Notes under the pieces: model-generated
Told to the model about the DNA's origin: nothing
Databases searched by the model: none
Seen by the model: only the letters and a program-made list of their open reading frames with translations
NCBI GenBank assembly: GCA_025058225.1
Contig: JANXEE010000025.1
Coordinates: 11,302 to 75,301 of the forward strand
DNA from: Candidatus Calditenuaceae archaeon
GTDB lineage: Archaea > Thermoproteota > Nitrososphaeria_A > Caldarchaeales > Calditenuaceae
Direction of reading: 5' to 3'
Length of the DNA stretch: 64,000 nt
Translations under genes and position numbers: made by a program
Part shown: positions 1 to 9,364 of the stretch, in pieces
Layout of the letters: each line of letters opens with the position of its first letter
Position numbering within the stretch: the stretch's first letter is position 1

Positions 1-2606
1 TGCTGCCCGCTGACAGGATCGGGCTGGACCGGGAACGTGAGGTTAACAGGCACGCCACCATCCTTCCACCAGATTCTCATCGTGTCGGGGTCGCTGCTCT
101 CGAAGGGCTCAATGCCTGAGATTACCCTCATTCTCACCAAGTCACCCTCCTCGCTCGTCTCGACGAAGGAAGAAGCGATTCTACTCGCCCCTATGTCCTT
201 CTGGACCCTGAACCTTCCGAAGTGCTCCGTACAGCCAATCACACCAGGCAACACTCCGCTTGTCACCCAGACCCTGCTGACGAAGTACCCTATCTCCGTA
301 GTTACCCTGATCAGGTCACCGGTCTTCACGCCGAGCTTCGCAGCGTCCTGTGGGTTCATCCAGATCGGGTTCTTATGGGATATCTCCGTTAACCACTTGG
401 CGTTGTTAGACCTAGTGTGAATCTGGGTTGGAACCCGCATAGTTGAGACCAATACGAACTCGCCCCGTTCCCTGTCAAGGTCGGCGTGATGGACATGGCT
501 CTTCACGTAAGAGGGAATAGCGTATTCCGGCCAACCCCACTCCTTCAGCGTTCTCGAGTAGAACTCAATTCTCCTGGACGGTGTAGGGAAGCCCAGCAGC
601 GGTTTCCCGTCAACCACCACACCTATCCGCCAACCCTTTTCGGTCCTCTCACTCGCCGGCATAGGGACCATGTTGATCCTCTTGGGAGGGTTAGGTGAGT
701 AAATCACACCCGTTGCCTCATCGAAGAAAGCGTCTCTCAGCTCCTCCTCGCCGAGGGGTGTCTCATGGCTCATGTATACGTTTCTCGCCATCTCATATGC
801 TCCGAATCTCCTCATGTATGAGAGAGGATCCATTCCAGCTTCCCTTGCCCTCTCCTTGAGTCCCGGGACCGAGTTCTCGAAGATCCACCTGTAGAACTCG
901 TCAGCCGTTATCTTCTCGCCGGGCCTGTAGGGCGACTCGAAGTTCTTCCTTATACCGAGTTTTCCGTCGGGGTCGATGCGCCAAGAGAGCTCTATCCAAA
1001 ACTCGGCCTCGTCCATCACCTCCGCCGGTGCTTTCAACTCCTTCCCCAGCTTCTCTCTGATCACTGAATTGATGGGCTGTCTGAACCCTATCCAGATCCC
1101 CGAGTAGGACTCATAGCTATGGAGGTCATGCCTCTCGAGGGCCGTCCCAACAGGCAGAATGAGGTCGGCATACCAGGCAGTCTCGTTCCAGAAGGGGGTG
1201 AGGGCAGCTATGAAGCCTATCTTCTCCTCGTCCGTCAATACCTTACTCCAGAGGAACCCGTCTGGATAAGTCACGATGGGGTTGAAGGCCCTTGGCATGT
1301 AGACCGAGAGCTTCCCTCTCCCCTCGAGGAGCATGTGGGGCAGAATGAAGCTCATTTCGTGGAAACTCAGCGGGAACTCTTTCGGAAAGAGCAGATCGCT
1401 CCAGACCCTCTGAGGCTCCGGGTGGTGAGGCACTCGGGGGACGAACTTGTGGAAGACGTTGAGGTCCATTCCTCCAACCGTCCCGATGCTTCCGGTCAAG
1501 GCGTGAAGGAAGACGAGGGCCCTCGAGACCTGCCAGCCGCCAAGGTTCCCCGCACACGCTGAACGCCATGTGTGGGATGAGAAGGCACCACCGGCCCTAG
1601 CTATCTCCAATGCCAGCTGCCTCACGGTCTCTGATGGAACACCGCACTCTTTCTCGACGAACTCTGGTGAGTACGCGGAGTAAATCGCCTTCAGTACTCT
1701 GATGAAGTTCTCAAAGGTCGGCTCCTTGTCCGGACACTCCTCCATCATGTACTCCTTCCAGTTGACCCATCTCCTCAGAAATTCCCTGTCGTAGAGGTCC
1801 TCCTGAAGTATCACGTTCGCTATTCCCAGTAGGAGCGCCGCCTCGGTTCCAGGCCAACACGGTATCCAATAGTCGGCCATGGCGGCAGTATTGGAGAGCC
1901 TGACGTCTATTACAGCGATTTTCGCACCCTTCTTCTTCGCGTCAATGATCCTTTGAGCGTGGGGATTGAAGTAATGTCCGCTCTCTAGGTGGTCGGAGAG
2001 CAACAGGATGAACCTGGCGTTCTCGAAGTCAGAGCAAGGCCTGTCCGCCCCCATTATCAGTGCATACCCAGCCCTAGCGGATGAGGAGCAGACGTTGGTG
2101 TGGCTGTTCCTTCCGTCGACTCCCCACGACTGGAGCACCCACTCCATGAAGCCGTCCTCACCGGGCCTTCCTACATGATACATTACCTCGGTCAACCTGC
2201 CTTCCACAATGCATTTCCTTATCCTCTCTGCGAGCATATTGATGGCCTCGTCCCAGCTCACCCTGACCCATCTTCCCTCCCCTCTCCTGCTCCCCTCCTC
2301 ACGCTTGAGCGGATACGGAATCCTCTCCGGATCATAGAACTGATTGAGGCTCGCGGGGCCCTTGGCGCAGTTCCGTCCTCTGCTGGTAGGGTGGAATGGA
2401 TTCCCCTCTAACTTCGTAATCTCGAGCGACTCCCTGTCGACGTACGCAAGGAGCCCACACCCGGCCTCACAGTTGAAGCATACCGTGGGGACTATTAGAT
2501 ATCTTCTCTTAACTCGTCGCGGCCAGACCTTCGGGTCGTACTCCTCCCAGTCGTCCCACTTCTCTTGAGGGGGATGGCTCAGGAATCTCTGCACGACACC
2601 TGACAT
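1..2606 (-). CDS. Molybdopterin (bis-PGD) oxidoreductase catalytic subunit, DMSO-reductase family (Psr/Phs/Ttr-like); C-terminus runs off the window
   Basis: Absent from the ORF track because there is no stop codon inside the window. My reverse-strand translation from the ATG at 2606 stays open for 868 codons. Motifs: MSGVVQRFLSHPP...VCFNCEAGCGLLAYV (N-terminal 4Fe-4S Cys cluster), NSHTNVCSSSARAG (candidate Mo-ligand Cys), NPIWMNPQDAAKLGVKTGDLIRV (C-terminal barrel domain). No twin-arginine leader. Confidence 0.85.
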   Translation of the reverse strand, partial: MSGVVQRFLSHPPQEKWDDWEEYDPKVWPRRVKRRYLIVPTVCFNCEAGCGLLAYVDRESLEITKLEGNPFHPTSRGRNCAKGPASLNQFYDPERIPYPLKREEGSRRGEGRWVRVSWDEAINMLAERIRKCIVEGRLTEVMYHVGRPGEDGFMEWVLQSWGVDGRNSHTNVCSSSARAGYALIMGADRPCSDFENARFILLLSDHLESGHYFNPHAQRIIDAKKKGAKIAVIDVRLSNTAAMADYWIPCWPGTEAALLLGIANVILQEDLYDREFLRRWVNWKEYMMEECPDKEPTFENFIRVLKAIYSAYSPEFVEKECGVPSETVRQLALEIARAGGAFSSHTWRSACAGNLGGWQVSRALVFLHALTGSIGTVGGMDLNVFHKFVPRVPHHPEPQRVWSDLLFPKEFPLSFHEMSFILPHMLLEGRGKLSVYMPRAFNPIVTYPDGFLWSKVLTDEEKIGFIAALTPFWNETAWYADLILPVGTALERHDLHSYESYSGIWIGFRQPINSVIREKLGKELKAPAEVMDEAEFWIELSWRIDPDGKLGIRKNFESPYRPGEKITADEFYRWIFENSVPGLKERAREAGMDPLSYMRRFGAYEMARNVYMSHETPLGEEELRDAFFDEATGVIYSPNPPKRINMVPMPASERTEKGWRIGVVVDGKPLLGFPTPSRRIEFYSRTLKEWGWPEYAIPSYVKSHVHHADLDRERGEFVLVSTMRVPTQIHTRSNNAKWLTEISHKNPIWMNPQDAAKLGVKTGDLIRVTTEIGYFVSRVWVTSGVLPGVIGCTEHFGRFRVQKDIGASRIASSFVETSEEGDLVRMRVISGIEPFESSDPDTMRIWWKDGGVPVNLTFPVQPDPVSGQ

Positions 2607-2659
2607 AGATGTTAATTATTTGAATATTTGGTAGTAATCCATTAATTCGTGCGATAATG

Positions 2660-2669
2660 TTTATATATA
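2660..2669. promoter_or_regulatory. TATA-like element TTTATATATA in the divergent 136-bp spacer
   Basis: AT-rich, near-palindromic TATA-like sequence between the divergent Mo-enzyme gene (start 2606) and the FccB-like gene (start 2743). Which gene it serves is not determined. Confidence 0.35.
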
Positions 2670-2705
2670 GGTTACTGAAAAATTTTGGTATGCAAACGTA
2701 TGATA

Positions 2706-8032: not shown

Positions 8033-8054
8033 TCAGCCAACATCAGAGCTCGCC

Positions 8055-8981
8055 ATGTTGAAATACGCGCCGCTAGGAATGACGGTAGGTGTGTTGGCCG
8101 GTTCGATCGGTGATGAAGCCTCAGCCCCTTCGAGTCCTGAGGTTCTCCTCATTTTGCTGGCCCTGTTCACTTTCTCCTTCGTGATAGGGCTGATCTCGCC
8201 GATGGCCGGTATAGGTGGAGGAGTGTTGTTCACCCCTATACTGTTGGCCTTCACGTCGATAAACGTAGACCTAGTCAGGGGAACAGGAATAGCGCTGGCC
8301 ACCGCCAACTCCTTCACCGCGTCAGGAACCTTCGTCAGGGCGGGGGTGGTGAACTTGAGGCTGGGGCTCCTTGCGGCGCTCATAGCCGCAACCTGTGCGA
8401 TCGTTGGGGTGTTCCTCAGGCCTCCGGGGGGTCCTCTGCTGAACTCACTCTTAGGGCTAATTATGCTATCAGTGGTCCTGACGTACAACATTATGAAAGG
8501 AGGAGTTGAATATCCTCGCGCAGTCAACAGTGACTTCCTCGCTGAGAGGCTCCAGCTTAACGCTTCGTACTACGACAGAGCCCTCAACGAACACGTTAGT
8601 TACGCAGTTGAAAGGACAGTTTTTGGATTTCTGCTGTTCGGCGGAATGGGGTTCATCTCGGGGGCTTTCGGGGTCGGGGCCGGATGGGGAGCGGTTCCCA
8701 TAATCAACCTGTTGATGAGGGTGCCACTGAGGCCCTCGATAACCACCTCCCAGCTCATCGTAAGCATCAGCGGACTTACTGCGATGTGGATATACGTGCT
8801 TCAAGGGGCAGTCGTGCCCTTAATGGCCATACCCTCGTTGATGGGTGGAATGCTAGGAGTGTTGATCGGAAGCAGGATCGCGGTCAGGGCGGGGGCGCGG
8901 TACATCAGATATACCGTCATAGCCATAATGTCCTTCACATCTCTCCGTCTGCTGTTAAGCGGGTTAGGTATATGGAGGTAG
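8055..8981 (+). CDS. TauE/SafE (TSUP, DUF81) family anion (sulfite/sulfonate) exporter
   Basis: 308-aa polytopic ORF. Duplicated glycine-rich helices (MAGIGGGVLFTPILL and GAFGVGAGWGAVPIINLL) are characteristic of the family. Confidence 0.8.
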   Translation: MLKYAPLGMTVGVLAGSIGDEASAPSSPEVLLILLALFTFSFVIGLISPMAGIGGGVLFTPILLAFTSINVDLVRGTGIALATANSFTASGTFVRAGVVNLRLGLLAALIAATCAIVGVFLRPPGGPLLNSLLGLIMLSVVLTYNIMKGGVEYPRAVNSDFLAERLQLNASYYDRALNEHVSYAVERTVFGFLLFGGMGFISGAFGVGAGWGAVPIINLLMRVPLRPSITTSQLIVSISGLTAMWIYVLQGAVVPLMAIPSLMGGMLGVLIGSRIAVRAGARYIRYTVIAIMSFTSLRLLLSGLGIWR

Positions 8982-9364
8982 TAAGGCTTCTAGGGAAGAT
9001 ACTCAGGTCCGGGGCCGTGTTGAGCTTCGCAATAATGGCGGTGGGGCTCGTTATGAACATCGCCGGATATTCATACGTCACCCCATCGGAGGTCTTCTGG
9101 AACTGGACAAAGGGCAAAACCGCAGACGAGTTTTGGACTCACGTGGGGAAAGAGGGCACGGGGTATTGGTTCCTAACGCGGCTGGCCTCTGGAGATGCCA
9201 TCGGGATGATAGGTATATCCGTCTTTACTGTTACCATGCTGGCTGCACTCTTAGCACTCTTCGGGGCCTTCATCTCGTCGAAGCACAGGGACTACATGTA
9301 CGCCCTGTTCACGTTTCTGACGATCGTTGTCATTCTGATTGCAATACTTGGATTGAACCGCTGA
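8972..9364 (+). CDS. Small membrane protein, DUF1634-like partner of TauE
   Basis: The first 96 codons of track ORF 8684..9364 overlap the TauE gene out of frame. The in-frame ATG at 8972 overlaps the TauE stop by 10 nt and gives a 130-aa protein with 3-4 TM helices. The family assignment is from memory of typical TauE neighbours. Confidence 0.5.
   Translation: MEVVRLLGKILRSGAVLSFAIMAVGLVMNIAGYSYVTPSEVFWNWTKGKTADEFWTHVGKEGTGYWFLTRLASGDAIGMIGISVFTVTMLAALLALFGAFISSKHRDYMYALFTFLTIVVILIAILGLNR

Follow-up and report, generated by a model that had tools for sequence, protein, structure and literature searches.

Organization of the locus

The window analyzed here is a 64,000-nt stretch of DNA from a hot-spring archaeon belonging to the Caldarchaeales (Aigarchaeota). 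An earlier note, made from the sequence alone, had described eight genes at positions 1–9364, and all eight were present with strong profile matches in Pfam and NCBIfam searches. One gene lies on the minus strand, and the remaining seven are tightly packed on the plus strand with intergenic gaps of 6, 39, 7, 6, 22, and −10 nt. A cluster of sHdr, LbpA, and DsrE genes adjoins the window start, just outside it. The two transcription units diverge from a putative promoter spacer (2607–2742, unstranded). This 136-bp spacer is indeed AT-rich as noted earlier, with an A+T content of 67.6% compared with 40.7% over the full window. It contains a TATA-like palindrome (2655–2674), an inverted repeat (2690–2702/2709–2721), and two tandem copies of TTGCATTCGT (2706–2725), and sequence blocks of the spacer were kept in the orthologous spacer of a second Caldarchaeales genus (L092). 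These repeats are candidate promoter or operator elements.

Catalytic subunit A and fused subunit BC

The minus-strand gene (1–2606) encodes a PsrA/SoeA-like catalytic Mo/W-bisPGD subunit, termed A. Its open reading frame begins with an ATG at 2606 (alternatively, a GTG at 2594) and extends over 868 codons as far as window base 3, where the window edge truncates it. The full-length protein has 929–933 residues (P0001, from L001); residues 1–868 lie in the window and the C-terminal ~61 lie past its start. The Pfam domains Molybdop_Fe4S4 (6e-12), Molybdopterin (2e-22), and Molydop_binding (2e-18) were identified. Signal peptides were assessed by eye and with a hydropathy script. Since only 38 residues precede the cluster Cys motif (C39-x2-C-x3-C...C76) and no hydrophobic h-region was seen among them, A was judged to lack a Tat signal, and an in-frame stop at 2616–2618 ruled out a hidden upstream leader. 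Thus, the earlier description of a molybdenum subunit that keeps its N-terminal 4Fe-4S motif without a twin-arginine leader was borne out. Cys169 aligned with Cys173, which is the Mo ligand in Thermus PsrA, and was invariant across the family of A homologues.

The gene at 6542–8032 (plus strand) encodes a Fer4_11::NrfD fusion, termed BC. The B part (aa 1–~200, nt 6542–7141) is a PsrB/SoeB-like ferredoxin, which matched Thermus PsrB (2vpw_B) over residues 1–181 with 3e-58. The 16 Cys of BC fall in four groups, and the proposed four-cluster ferredoxin agreed with the solved structure. The C part is NrfD/PsrC-like, with eight transmembrane helices at aa 234–487 (nt 7241–8002) and a Pfam NrfD match at aa 224–492 (nt 7211–8017). 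BC has no signal peptide, and its first Cys motif is located ~10 residues from the start, both here and family-wide. Thermus PsrB likewise begins directly at its first cluster motif; hence, the absence of a Tat signal from B itself is not atypical, contrary to the emphasis of the earlier note. Under the N-in orientation, the NrfD domain has 10 Lys and Arg residues inside versus 1 outside, and BC is predicted to be N-in with its FeS part on the cytoplasmic side. The leaderless A, the short N-terminus of BC, and this charge bias together support the suggested cytoplasm-facing Mo enzyme. Neither a Tat signal nor a separate PsrC supplied by a neighbour outside the window was found.

The nearest solved structure to A was that of Thermus PsrA, a polysulfide/thiosulfate reductase (1e-46), and A reached no NCBIfam equivalog threshold (score/cut-off: PhsA, 204/694; TtrA, 110/1750; ArrA, 120/1600). 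Both observations count against an oxidative role. The substrate might instead contain no sulfur (e.g., arsenite/arsenate, selenate, nitrate, formate, or an organic compound), with the nearby sulfur genes being coincidental. A matched the DmsA/YnfE, Fdh-alpha, and ArrA models weakly and in part, its PDB matches include acetylene hydratase and FdhF, and one source labels a close homologue as a formate dehydrogenase. However, all of these models were far from their cut-offs, and none of the genes seen next to that for A relates to arsenic, selenium, or nitrogen. The recurrent neighbours across unrelated phyla are instead sulfur-trafficking or sulfite-forming genes (DsrE, TusA, rhodanese, Dsr, sHdr, and TauE). 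We therefore regard a non-sulfur substrate as very improbable.

Transporters

Two permeases are encoded on the plus strand. The first (5402–6535, alternative TTG start at 5381) is a YeeE/TsuA-type protein with a Sulf_transp match of 1e-32. In an alignment with YeeE of S. thermophila (6leo), Cys22, Cys91, and Cys293 were all conserved, and thus the three Cys motifs recognized earlier held against a solved structure. Judging from its sequence, this permease probably imports thiosulfate or a related sulfur anion. A TusA/YeeD partner, which the Ca. Caldarchaeum cluster does contain, was not found in the window, and its absence there counts against the oxidative interpretation.

The second is a TauE/SafE (TSUP) anion permease (8055–8981; TauE, 2e-32), which probably exports sulfate or sulfite. 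The name of TauE is that of a sulfite exporter; taken literally, it would suit a reductase equally well and in this respect counts against oxidation. The TauE gene overlaps by 10 nt the gene of a DUF1634/AF_1016 small membrane protein (8972–9364, plus strand; DUF1634, 2e-06) of 130 residues with 3–4 transmembrane segments, and the overlapping membrane partner of the earlier note is therefore present. This protein is probably the partner of TauE. A 226-aa reading frame for it was rejected as an over-extension. In Chlorobium sp. N1, BC-A is followed by a TauE with 40% identity to the present one, and a Chlorobium MAG (L060) has both TauE and DUF1634 after BC-A. For both permeases, we infer the transported species.

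Predicted outward-facing flavoprotein, 257-aa protein, and cupredoxin

The first plus-strand gene (2743–4122) encodes an FccB-like FAD flavoprotein of the sulfide dehydrogenase type with Pyr_redox_2 and FCSD_central domains. Its N-terminus, NRRAVLGAVAG..., consists of a twin arginine and a hydrophobic stretch, and this twin-arginine/transmembrane segment is accompanied by a Thr/Glu/Arg-rich linker. The RR pair was invariant in three Caldarchaeales orthologues. The Tat-signal flavoprotein reported before was thus recovered, and it is predicted to face outward. Its best solved relative was FccB of A. vinosum (1fcd, 5e-30); the equivalents of Cys161 and Cys337 are retained (PYKCPP and NICWS), whereas the Cys42 FAD link is not.

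The next gene (4129–4902, plus strand) encodes a 257-aa protein with no Pfam or NCBIfam match. A search of 5.8 billion proteins yielded only four homologues, all from Caldarchaeales. An AlphaFold2 model (pLDDT 81, pTM 0.76) consisted of an N-terminal transmembrane anchor and two β-sandwich (jelly-roll-like) domains, for which the PDB fold matches were generic (TM ~0.3). Cys204 and Cys209 are conserved, and the terminal GTCG, including Cys256, is retained in the three full-length sequences.

The third gene (4942–5394, plus strand; alternative start at 4930) encodes an amicyanin-type type-1 copper protein (Copper-bind, 2e-07) with an N-terminal hydrophobic membrane anchor. Alignment with amicyanin indicated that all four ligands, His, Cys, His, and Met, are conserved (HDV... 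and CAAHPWM), in agreement with the copper site assigned earlier. In bacteria, the cytochrome FccA is the partner of FccB; here, the cupredoxin is proposed to take the place of FccA. The members of the trio may be linked physically or by electron transfer. A terminal oxidase that could accept electrons from the cupredoxin was not found in window positions 1–37 kb or in L001 up to ~7.3 kb past the window start, which counts against the oxidative interpretation. The sole unusual part of the island is this trio, which combines an FccB-like flavoprotein and a cupredoxin with a β-sandwich protein confined to Caldarchaeales.

Distribution and gene neighbours of the BC-A module

Homologues encoded behind a fused BC gene were 53–59% identical to A and came from many phyla of bacteria. 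Of 71 informative species genomes, drawn from many phyla, at least 65 carried a fused BC gene immediately before that for A. By filter, the arrangement was detected in 63 of 80 species-representative loci; two further loci (L018 and L020) also carry an upstream BC but were missed by the filter. Among the 80 loci, two had B and C as separate genes, nine had too little upstream DNA, and only three were without BC. Bacteria have both genes in one operon, unlike the divergent units observed here. In Chloroflexus, BC-A is followed by a NarJ/TorD-like chaperone gene; no TorD/NarJ-like chaperone gene was found within the present island. Both the divergent arrangement and the missing chaperone gene count against oxidation.

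Such a module has been described previously. Reported cases, in which a fused PsrBC gene precedes that of a Tat-less PsrA-like subunit, come from green sulfur bacteria (PSRLC3), Marine Group A and II, the Chloroflexi Caldilinea and Chloroflexus, and the haloarchaeon Haladaptatus (PMC3906813). The module was proposed to act in these groups as a cytoplasm-facing sulfite:quinone oxidoreductase comparable to SoeABC. Within this class, SoeABC is the cytoplasm-facing enzyme that has been given a name (PMC8076601). Therefore, the signal-less A and the ferredoxin::NrfD fusion constitute the known two-gene psrBC-psrA module and not a new unit, although the earlier note had not recognized the combination as described.

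The neighbours of the module are rich in sulfur genes. In Chlorobium sp. N1, the order is BC-A-TauE-(267 aa)-DsrE2-rhodanese-TusA-DsrN-like-DsrA-like. sHdr-like genes, LbpA, LplA, DsrE, and TusA were found in Caldarchaeales, and HdrB/C-like genes, LbpA, DsrE, and TusA in Ktedonobacteraceae (L046) and Anaerolineales (L056). On pRHL3 of Rhodococcus jostii RHA1, three MBL-fold+rhodanese proteins, DsrE, and TusA accompany BC and A. Three different systems that produce sulfite in the cytoplasm are found next to the module: rDsr accompanies it in Chlorobium, sHdr-LbpA does so in both Caldarchaeales and Ktedonobacteria, and Rhodococcus has persulfide-dioxygenase-like genes there. Many hosts are aerobic (Blastocatellia, Ktedonobacterales, Thermomicrobium, Rhodococcus, and Natrinema).

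The whole island was co-conserved as well: the second Caldarchaeales genus has all eight genes in identical order, and in Ca. Caldarchaeum (L007–L009) they are rearranged yet linked. The latter rearrangement, into [BC-TauE], [A], and [FccB-unk-cupredoxin-YeeE], could mean that the adjacency is largely historical, i.e., a patchwork of independent modules for outer sulfide oxidation, transport, Mo enzyme, and export without a single pathway. The TauE of Ca. Caldarchaeum is moreover a different paralogue (26% identical), and BC-A alone is constant outside Caldarchaeales. However, the modules lie within ~17 kb of each other and beside sHdr-LbpA in every Caldarchaeales contig examined, the seven packed window genes are separated by only −10 to 39 nt, and TauE (with DUF1634) follows BC-A in Chlorobium as well. 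A mere patchwork thus appears quite unlikely.

Proposed sulfur metabolism

Green sulfur bacterial PSRLC3, a two-gene system, is an inferred sulfite oxidase, and this cytoplasmic complex was proposed to oxidize Dsr-made sulfite (PMC3906813). For SoeABC, SoeAB was hypothesized to lie on the N-side with an inverted SoeC (PMC8076601), and a route from sHdr via sulfite to SoeABC was proposed for archaea (PMC8551704). The describers of the fused type stated that sequence cannot settle the substrate (PMC3906813), which counts against the oxidative interpretation. The likeness of the present enzyme to SoeABC lies in architecture, gene company, and published descriptions.

What the Mo enzyme acts on, and in which direction, is our inference. 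The earlier note had suggested turnover of imported thiosulfate or tetrathionate with export of sulfite. In this form, A and BC would be a cytoplasm-facing, quinol-fed reductase of imported thiosulfate, tetrathionate, or polysulfide (S_n), with YeeE as the importer and TauE exporting the resulting sulfite. Thermus PsrA and PsrB are the best solved relatives of A and B, PhsA was the second-best partial NCBIfam match of A, YeeE retains the thiosulfate-transporter cysteines, and TauE/SafE proteins are named sulfite or sulfoacetate exporters. Marine Group A homologues were also treated as polysulfide reductase by Wright et al., and such genes are annotated as tetrathionate reductase in Caldarchaeales papers. 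On the other hand, the PhsA, TtrA, and ArrA scores were far under the curated cut-offs, four unrelated lineages have the module next to oxidative systems that form sulfite (rDsr, sHdr-LbpA, and PDO-like), and the module is common among aerobic heterotrophs. Quinol-driven reduction of thiosulfate or polysulfide is endergonic and is thought to need proton motive force and an outward-facing site. A reductase is therefore unlikely, and oxidation of sulfite to sulfate is favoured because the module adjoins oxidative systems that produce sulfite and occurs in many aerobes. In summary, the earlier interpretation stands as to a co-conserved sulfur island with a cytoplasm-facing Mo enzyme, but not as to novelty or the thiosulfate/tetrathionate reaction.

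Here, we propose a sulfur-oxidation model for the island. A and BC would form a membrane-bound complex of the psrBC-psrA/PSRLC3/SoeABC type with its catalytic side to the cytoplasm, most likely oxidizing cytoplasmic sulfite to sulfate. In this complex, one plus four FeS clusters would carry electrons to quinone at a cytoplasm-facing site of the inverted NrfD domain. The YeeE/TsuA-type permease may import thiosulfate or a related anion carrying sulfane sulfur, which would be turned into sulfite by the sHdr-LbpA-DsrE system, whose genes adjoin the window start from outside. TauE with its DUF1634 partner would export sulfate, or else excess sulfite, as the anionic product. In a separate outward-facing branch, the Tat-targeted flavoprotein, the anchored β-sandwich protein, and the anchored cupredoxin would oxidize sulfide. 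We consider this combination of sulfite oxidation by A and BC, supply by sHdr, export by TauE, and an outer sulfide branch moderately likely. With similar confidence, somewhat better than even, the region may be regarded as the right-hand portion of an island for dissimilatory sulfur oxidation in Caldarchaeales, assembled from known modules, and the cluster most likely oxidizes sulfide, thiosulfate, and sulfite to sulfate.

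Organization of the sulfur island

The gene for the catalytic molybdenum subunit, termed A, carries Molybdop_Fe4S4, Molybdopterin, and Molydop_binding domains and runs on the minus strand from an ATG at 2606 (alternative GTG at 2594) to the window edge. A divergent spacer of 136 bp (2607-2742), with an A+T content of 67.6% against 40.7% for the whole window, separates it from seven plus-strand genes whose gaps are only -10 to 39 nt. These encode an FccB-like flavoprotein with matching profile domains (2743-4122), a 257-aa protein with no family match, hereafter the orphan (4129-4902), a cupredoxin (4942-5394), a Sulf_transp/YeeE permease (5402-6535), a Fer4_11::NrfD fusion termed BC (6542-8032), a TauE permease (8055-8981), and a 130-aa DUF1634/AF_1016 membrane protein (8972-9364) that overlaps the TauE gene by 10 nt. 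The start of the last gene at 8972 was placed by independent gene calls and the Pfam match; a 226-aa ORF at 8684-9364 was rejected as an upstream over-extension within TauE. Reading of the ORFs and matches to Pfam and NCBIfam profiles bore out the description of these genes in the earlier note in every substantive point.

The spacer contains a TATA-like palindrome (2655-2674), an inverted repeat, ATGCAAACGTATG / CATTCGTTTGCAT, at 2690-2702 / 2709-2721, and two tandem copies of TTGCATTCGT at 2706-2725. Several spacer blocks are kept in the orthologous spacer of L092, a locus from a second Caldarchaeales genus, and the repeats, located ahead of the flavoprotein operon, may be where a regulator binds. 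A promoter and terminator scan 3' of the operon found nothing; its models are bacterial and do not apply to an archaeal host. Since genes for a thermosome subunit, ribosomal protein S19, acetyl-CoA synthetase, and other housekeeping functions come next (9.4-37 kb), the island was taken to end at 9364. The same region holds a MogA/MoaB-like molybdenum-cofactor biosynthesis gene (15171-15722, minus strand) and, at 19566-23553 on the minus strand, a NitT/TauT-type (nitrate/sulfonate/taurine) ABC transporter, an NMT1-like binding protein, and a FAD_binding_4 oxidase.

A signal-less catalytic subunit

Full-length A (P0001) consists of 929-933 aa, and its N-terminus is MSGVVQRFLSHPPQEKWDDW / MSGVVQRFLSHPPQEKWDDWEEYD. 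Because an in-frame stop (2616-2618), 3 codons upstream of the ATG, bars a longer N-terminus and the cluster motif CFNCEAGC...C begins at residue 39, a twin-arginine leader could not be accommodated, and a hidden Tat leader was ruled out by the same stop. Thus, inspection of the N-terminus together with the stop upheld the earlier claim that A has neither a Tat nor another signal sequence. Signal peptides and topology were judged throughout by inspection and with a hydropathy script. No signal sequence was found on the A homologues from Chloroflexus and Blastocatellia either.

By contrast with A, relatives at about 45% identity or less mostly bear classical RRxFLK-type leaders, located upstream of the segment with which window A begins. 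In the nearest Tat-bearing relatives (P0130, P0140, and P0142; 34-43% identity in global alignment), the RRxFLK leader and a spacer are followed by a 'YPPFE-W' segment homologous to the extreme N-terminus of window A, which indicates that gain or loss of an N-terminal extension separates the Tat-less from the Tat-bearing forms. A rough neighbour-joining tree, calculated with no support values, placed the Tat-less A proteins, including those of green sulfur bacteria, in one coherent clade apart from the bulk of the Tat-bearing Psr/Phs-like sequences.

The best solved relative of A is Thermus PsrA (1e-46), whose Mo ligand Cys173 corresponds in the alignment to Cys169 of A, a residue shared by all members of the family. 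Membership of A in the PhsA, TtrA, ArrA, DmsA, or FdhA classes was rejected, as the curated NCBIfam cut-offs were far from reached: the scores were 204 bits for PhsA (cut-off 694), 110 for TtrA (1750), 120 for ArrA (1600), 219 for the DmsA family (778), and 179 for Fdh-alpha (666). QrcB scored 134 bits against a cut-off of 440, and the NCBIfam matches of A included no SoeA model.

Membrane orientation of the fused subunit

In BC, Fer4_11 (aa 55-145) and NrfD (aa 224-492) lie within one 496-aa ORF according to Pfam. Residues 1-181 match Thermus PsrB over their entire length (3e-58) and retain each of the sixteen cluster cysteines, and the NrfD part forms eight hydrophobic helices (aa 234-487). 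The protein starts just ten residues ahead of the first Cys motif, and hence its FeS domain must stay in the cytoplasm. In the published PsrC structure, both termini lie on the outer side, beside PsrB (PMC8076601); with the FeS domain of BC in the cytoplasm, the NrfD domain is therefore fixed in the inverted orientation. The charge distribution of the loops agrees with an N-in topology, with 10 Lys and Arg residues inside versus 1 outside. BC is thus a natural topological marker, in which a signal-less FeS domain covalently tied to NrfD helix 1 forces an orientation towards the cytoplasm that has so far only been hypothesised for SoeC.

Conservation in Caldarchaeales and the sHdr flank

The same eight genes occur in the same order in L092 (GCA_039630085.1). 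In the Ca. Caldarchaeum genomes (L007 among them), they are rearranged but still together: TauE-BC and A are transcribed divergently, FccB-orphan-cupredoxin-YeeE flanks A on its opposite side, and sHdr-LbpA-TusA-DsrE is found alongside. Identities to the window proteins in L092 and L007, respectively, were 83% and 79% for A, 78% and 62% for the FccB-like flavoprotein, 63% and 42% for the orphan, 69% and 53% for the cupredoxin, 75% and 52% for YeeE, 71% and 59% for BC, and 66% and 26% for TauE. The neighbourhood comparison that the earlier note had proposed thus showed the eight genes to be co-conserved, and they form a real sulfur island. Window TauE is 40% identical to the TauE of Chlorobium sp. 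N1 (L054, 10838-11794) but only 26% to that of Ca. Caldarchaeum (L007, 7589-8353), indicating that the two archaeal lineages use different TauE paralogues at the same place.

In the 7.3 kb next to window base 1, read from the longer locus L001 (519-7059), an sHdr-LbpA-type cluster was identified. It encodes a conserved protein of no assigned function (127 aa), a NarI/HdrE-like membrane protein (283 aa), a small Fer4 ferredoxin (148 aa), an HdrA-like flavoprotein (352 aa), an HdrB-like CCG protein (427 aa), and an HdrC-like ferredoxin (257 aa), and, on the strand opposite to the Hdr genes, DsrE, a GcvH/LbpA-like protein with the ESAK lipoyl motif, and a lipoate-protein ligase. This gene content is that of an sHdr-LbpA sulfur-oxidising heterodisulfide-reductase-like system, in which the Fer4 and NarI-like pair suggests a membrane or quinone outlet. 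The 10 kb inspected beyond the window edge contained neither a separate PsrC nor a Tat-bearing partner, so that the earlier picture of A and BC as a pair of signal-less proteins also held once the neighbours beyond the window start were included.

Distribution and genomic company of A and BC

Homologues of A number in the thousands, at 53-62% identity, and are spread over many phyla, among them Chloroflexota, Acidobacteriota, Planctomycetota, Bacteroidota, Gemmatimonadota, Binatia, Methylomirabilota, Actinomycetota, Chlorobiota, and haloarchaea. Cultivable hosts of the module include Chloroflexus, Thermomicrobium roseum, Rhodococcus jostii RHA1, Natrinema, and Chlorobium. Across species-representative genomes, at least 592 confirmed matches to A were obtained, of which the best 80 loci were examined; Chromatiaceae and Aquificae were absent from these best 80 of at least 592 loci. 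A fused Fer4::NrfD gene lay directly upstream of A in 63 of the 80, and also in L018 and L020. B and C were split in two of the 80 (L010 and L036), three had no fused BC gene upstream of A, and in nine the upstream DNA was too short to judge. A NarJ/TorD-like chaperone gene often follows A, for example in Chloroflexus.

The surrounding genes are concerned with sulfur. In Chlorobium sp. N1, BC and A are followed, in this order, by genes for TauE, a 267-aa membrane protein, DsrE2, rhodanese, TusA, a DsrN-like amidase, and a DsrA-like sirohaem protein, so that the module abuts reverse-Dsr genes; in a Chlorobium MAG, a DUF1634 homologue follows TauE. Loci of Ktedonobacteraceae and Anaerolineales have HdrB/C-like, LbpA, DsrE, and TusA genes within 6 kb of the module, and its neighbour in Caldarchaeales is sHdr-LbpA. 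On plasmid pRHL3 of R. jostii RHA1 (L091, 215195-231975), where A is 52% identical to window A, DsrE and TusA precede BC and A, and the surroundings contain three MBL-fold and rhodanese fusions of the persulfide-dioxygenase/Blh type, two DUF202 genes, ArsR-type regulators, and an Mrp/ApbC FeS carrier. This compact cluster, in an aerobe that can be cultivated, resembles one for sulfide detoxification. rDsr, sHdr, and persulfide dioxygenase are enzymatically unrelated routes that all release sulfite in the cytoplasm. The recurrence of such sulfite-producing neighbours is the strongest argument that sulfite is the probable substrate of A and BC.

The same evidence bears on the main rival reading, which follows the turnover of imported thiosulfate or tetrathionate suggested in the earlier note and according to which A and BC form a cytoplasmic reductase of thiosulfate, tetrathionate, or polysulfide. 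The module, however, keeps oxidative company, many of its hosts are aerobes, and the reductase profiles score below their thresholds. We consider this reading improbable, and favour sulfite oxidation.

Predicted outward-facing proteins, and transporters

The best PDB match of the flavoprotein is A. vinosum FccB (1fcd, 5e-30). The redox cysteines Cys161 and Cys337 of FccB are kept (PYKCPP aligns with PFRCPP, and NICWS with NTCYS), whereas the FAD-linking Cys42 is absent, the aligned position being Gly/Pro (SWVSGPAH versus DYYTCYLS). The threshold for type III SQR (NF049943) was missed, with 145 bits against 525. The N-terminal hydrophobic segment is joined to the FAD domain by a low-complexity Thr/Glu/Arg linker with ERTVTQ(T/P) repeats (2845-2952; aa 35-70), which was found in the orthologues too but is variable. 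The invariant RR, the hydrophobic stretch, and the repeat linker suggest that the flavoprotein is Tat-exported and that its N-terminus may be retained as an anchor.

The cupredoxin, encoded two genes downstream of the flavoprotein, has an N-terminal anchor and the complete type-1 copper set His...Cys-x2-His-x2-Met, as judged by alignment with amicyanin (1sf3/1aac; HDV and CAAHPWM are kept); its score for the TIGR02657 equivalog, 39 bits, did not reach the cut-off of 110. As no cytochrome c gene was detected in window 1-37 kb or in L001 to about 7.3 kb beyond the window start, the cupredoxin is the obvious candidate acceptor for the flavoprotein, a link that rests on conserved adjacency.

The orphan had 4 matches among 5.8 billion proteins, all in Caldarchaeales, and its gene is always located between those of the FccB-like protein and the cupredoxin. 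The structure model (pLDDT 81, confident) predicts two β-sandwich domains on a membrane anchor and places conserved cysteines in them; Cys204 and Cys209 are invariant, and the C-terminal GTCG is kept in the three full-length sequences. A fold search with this model returned generic two-β-sandwich matches alone (SID1 ectodomain, CUB domains, and jelly rolls; TM about 0.3) and gave no functional lead. A metagenome scan with the FccB-like alignment, aimed at the range of the flavoprotein/cupredoxin pairing, used patterns that proved too lineage-specific and recovered one locus, again from Ca. Caldarchaeum.

YeeE matches Sulf_transp of Pfam with 114.5 bits (cut-off 27) and keeps all three essential cysteines of StYeeE, C22, C91, and C293, in the alignment with S. 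thermophila 6leo; with 38 of 645 and 54 of 400 bits, it falls far under the cut-offs of the TsuA equivalog models. Neither YeeD nor TusA is encoded beside YeeE in the window, and TusA is present in the L007 cluster. TauE reaches 113.4 bits for its Pfam family (cut-off 32.6).

Comparison with known systems

The earlier note did not recognise the gene combination as a described unit. This view did not stand for A and BC, the most conspicuous part of the island, which make up a known and widespread module, here archaeal and sHdr-linked, for which a functional hypothesis has been published. In Marine Group A fosmids, Wright et al. described genes in psrBCA order whose PsrA has no Tat signal and whose psrB and psrC are fused, and they noted the same arrangement in green sulfur bacteria (citing Frigaard & Bryant 2008) as well as in Caldilinea, Chloroflexus aggregans, Haladaptatus, and Marine Group II archaea; Dsr-derived sulfite had been proposed as the substrate of the cytoplasmic complex in green sulfur bacteria (Gregersen et al. 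2011), and sequence, according to Wright et al., cannot fix the substrate (PMC3906813). Elsewhere in the literature, the green sulfur bacterial version is called PSRLC3, an alternative sulfite-oxidising system of two genes. PSRLC3/psrBC-psrA shares with the island a Tat-less PsrA-like subunit, a fused PsrB and PsrC, and the two-gene composition. We infer that the Chlorobium loci retrieved here are PSRLC3 from the published description (two genes, cytoplasmic, fused BC) rather than from a locus-tag match; C. tepidum CT0494-0496 was rejected as PSRLC3, the locus being a three-gene psrABC.

Between Chlorobium sp. N1 and the window, A is 58%, BC 44%, and TauE 40% identical, and in Chlorobium, as in the island, TauE (with DUF1634), DsrE, and TusA are nearby. 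The arrangements differ. In the bacterial loci, BC and A follow each other in one operon, whereas A is transcribed away from the BC operon both in the window and in L092, and L007 has A and BC as divergent neighbours. In the window, BC sits in a seven-gene operon, as opposed to the bacterial BC-A(-chaperone) unit. Furthermore, the host of the island is archaeal and its sulfite source would be sHdr, in contrast to rDsr in green sulfur bacteria.

SoeABC is the characterised sulfite:quinone oxidoreductase of Allochromatium vinosum (Dahl et al. 2013) and Aquifex aeolicus (Boughanemi et al. 2020), in which SoeAB is placed on the N-side and the NrfD subunit is presumed to be inverted (PMC8076601). 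As quoted from the abstract of Dahl et al. 2013, soe-type genes are universal in purple and green sulfur bacteria. Like A and BC, SoeABC is a complex iron-sulfur molybdoenzyme with a haem-less, cofactor-less NrfD-type anchor whose orientation is presumed to be inverted, A and B subunits free of signal peptides, and a predicted N-side active site; as proposed for A and BC, it acts downstream of cytoplasmic sulfite-forming systems. Its reported sizes, about 109 kDa for A and about 63 kDa for B plus C, fit A (929-989 aa) and BC (496-560 aa). A difference is that B and C, fused in the window, are encoded individually as SoeB and SoeC. The likeness is one of architecture and description: sulfite activity was demonstrated for SoeABC, and the fused type would share it by analogy.

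Thermus thermophilus PsrABC (2vpw-2vpz) resembles A and BC in the Cys ligand to Mo, the four-cluster B, and the 8-TM NrfD-type C. However, PsrA is Tat-exported, the enzyme faces the periplasm, and the termini of PsrC lie on the P-side (PMC8076601). PsrABC also comprises three separate subunits; PsrA has about 765 aa versus 929 aa for window A, and the similarity between the two lies mostly within the N-terminal 380 residues. Likewise, the periplasmic PhsABC, PsrABC, TtrABC, and ArrAB have a Tat signal on the catalytic subunit, which window A lacks.

The flavoprotein shares with FccAB (A. vinosum 1fcd; Thermochromatium 3vrd) the FccB fold, the redox Cys pair, and a twin-arginine N-terminus for export of the folded flavoprotein. 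FccAB, however, has the dihaem FccA, in place of which the island encodes the anchored cupredoxin and the orphan, and the window flavoprotein differs in lacking Cys42 and in having an N-terminal segment that looks like an uncleaved anchor with a repeat linker. YeeE/TsuA (6leo) and the SoxT-type importers of sHdr/Sox oxidisers have, like window YeeE, a Sulf_transp fold and a place in a sulfur-oxidation cluster. The flank resembles the published sHdr-LbpA system (PMC11094781) in its HdrA/B/C-like proteins, LbpA (ESAK), lipoate ligase, and DsrE, to which Ca. Caldarchaeum adds TusA and a second DsrE. The cluster beside the window carries, in addition, a Fer4 and NarI/HdrE-like membrane pair. A route from sHdr via sulfite to SoeABC has been drawn for Sulfolobales (PMC8551704).

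Proposed pathway

Here, we propose a model of sulfur oxidation around the island. On the outside, the anchored flavoprotein would oxidise sulfide and pass electrons to the cupredoxin and then to a terminal oxidase, presumably encoded outside the examined stretches. YeeE, judging from its family and conserved cysteines, may import thiosulfate or a related sulfane-carrying anion, and inside the cell DsrE, TusA, LbpA, and sHdr could turn sulfane sulfur into sulfite, as the neighbouring genes and the literature suggest. A with BC, which face the cytoplasm, would oxidise this sulfite to sulfate and reduce quinone on the cytoplasmic side; genomic association and the precedents of PSRLC3 and SoeABC point to this substrate. 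TauE with the DUF1634 protein may export sulfate or surplus sulfite. As a whole, this mechanism from sulfide or thiosulfate through sulfite to sulfate is the one we consider most likely, with moderate confidence.

The lineage-specific flavoprotein, orphan, and cupredoxin are the only part of the island that might hold something new. As a speculative extension that we hold with considerable doubt, the Tat-targeted FccB-like flavoprotein, the Caldarchaeales-only anchored tandem β-sandwich orphan with its conserved cysteines, and the anchored amicyanin-type cupredoxin could constitute a cytochrome-free, copper-dependent sulfide dehydrogenase peculiar to Caldarchaeales. In such an enzyme, the cupredoxin would replace FccA as the acceptor, and the orphan would dock both partners or handle the sulfur product; YeeE would then import the oxidised sulfur for the sHdr/Soe-like route.

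The module is very widespread, with its at least 592 matches in species-representative genomes, and sulfite is the putative substrate of its fused form. If the proposed mechanism is true, Caldarchaeales (Aigarchaeota) can oxidise sulfide or thiosulfate all the way to sulfate via sHdr and a Soe-like cytoplasmic sulfite dehydrogenase. The genome papers on Caldarchaeales that were consulted credit them with sqr-type sulfide oxidation only, label such Mo enzymes as tetrathionate reductase, and do not mention this pathway; on this reading, the cluster would correct those annotations and alter inferences on sulfur cycling in hot springs.
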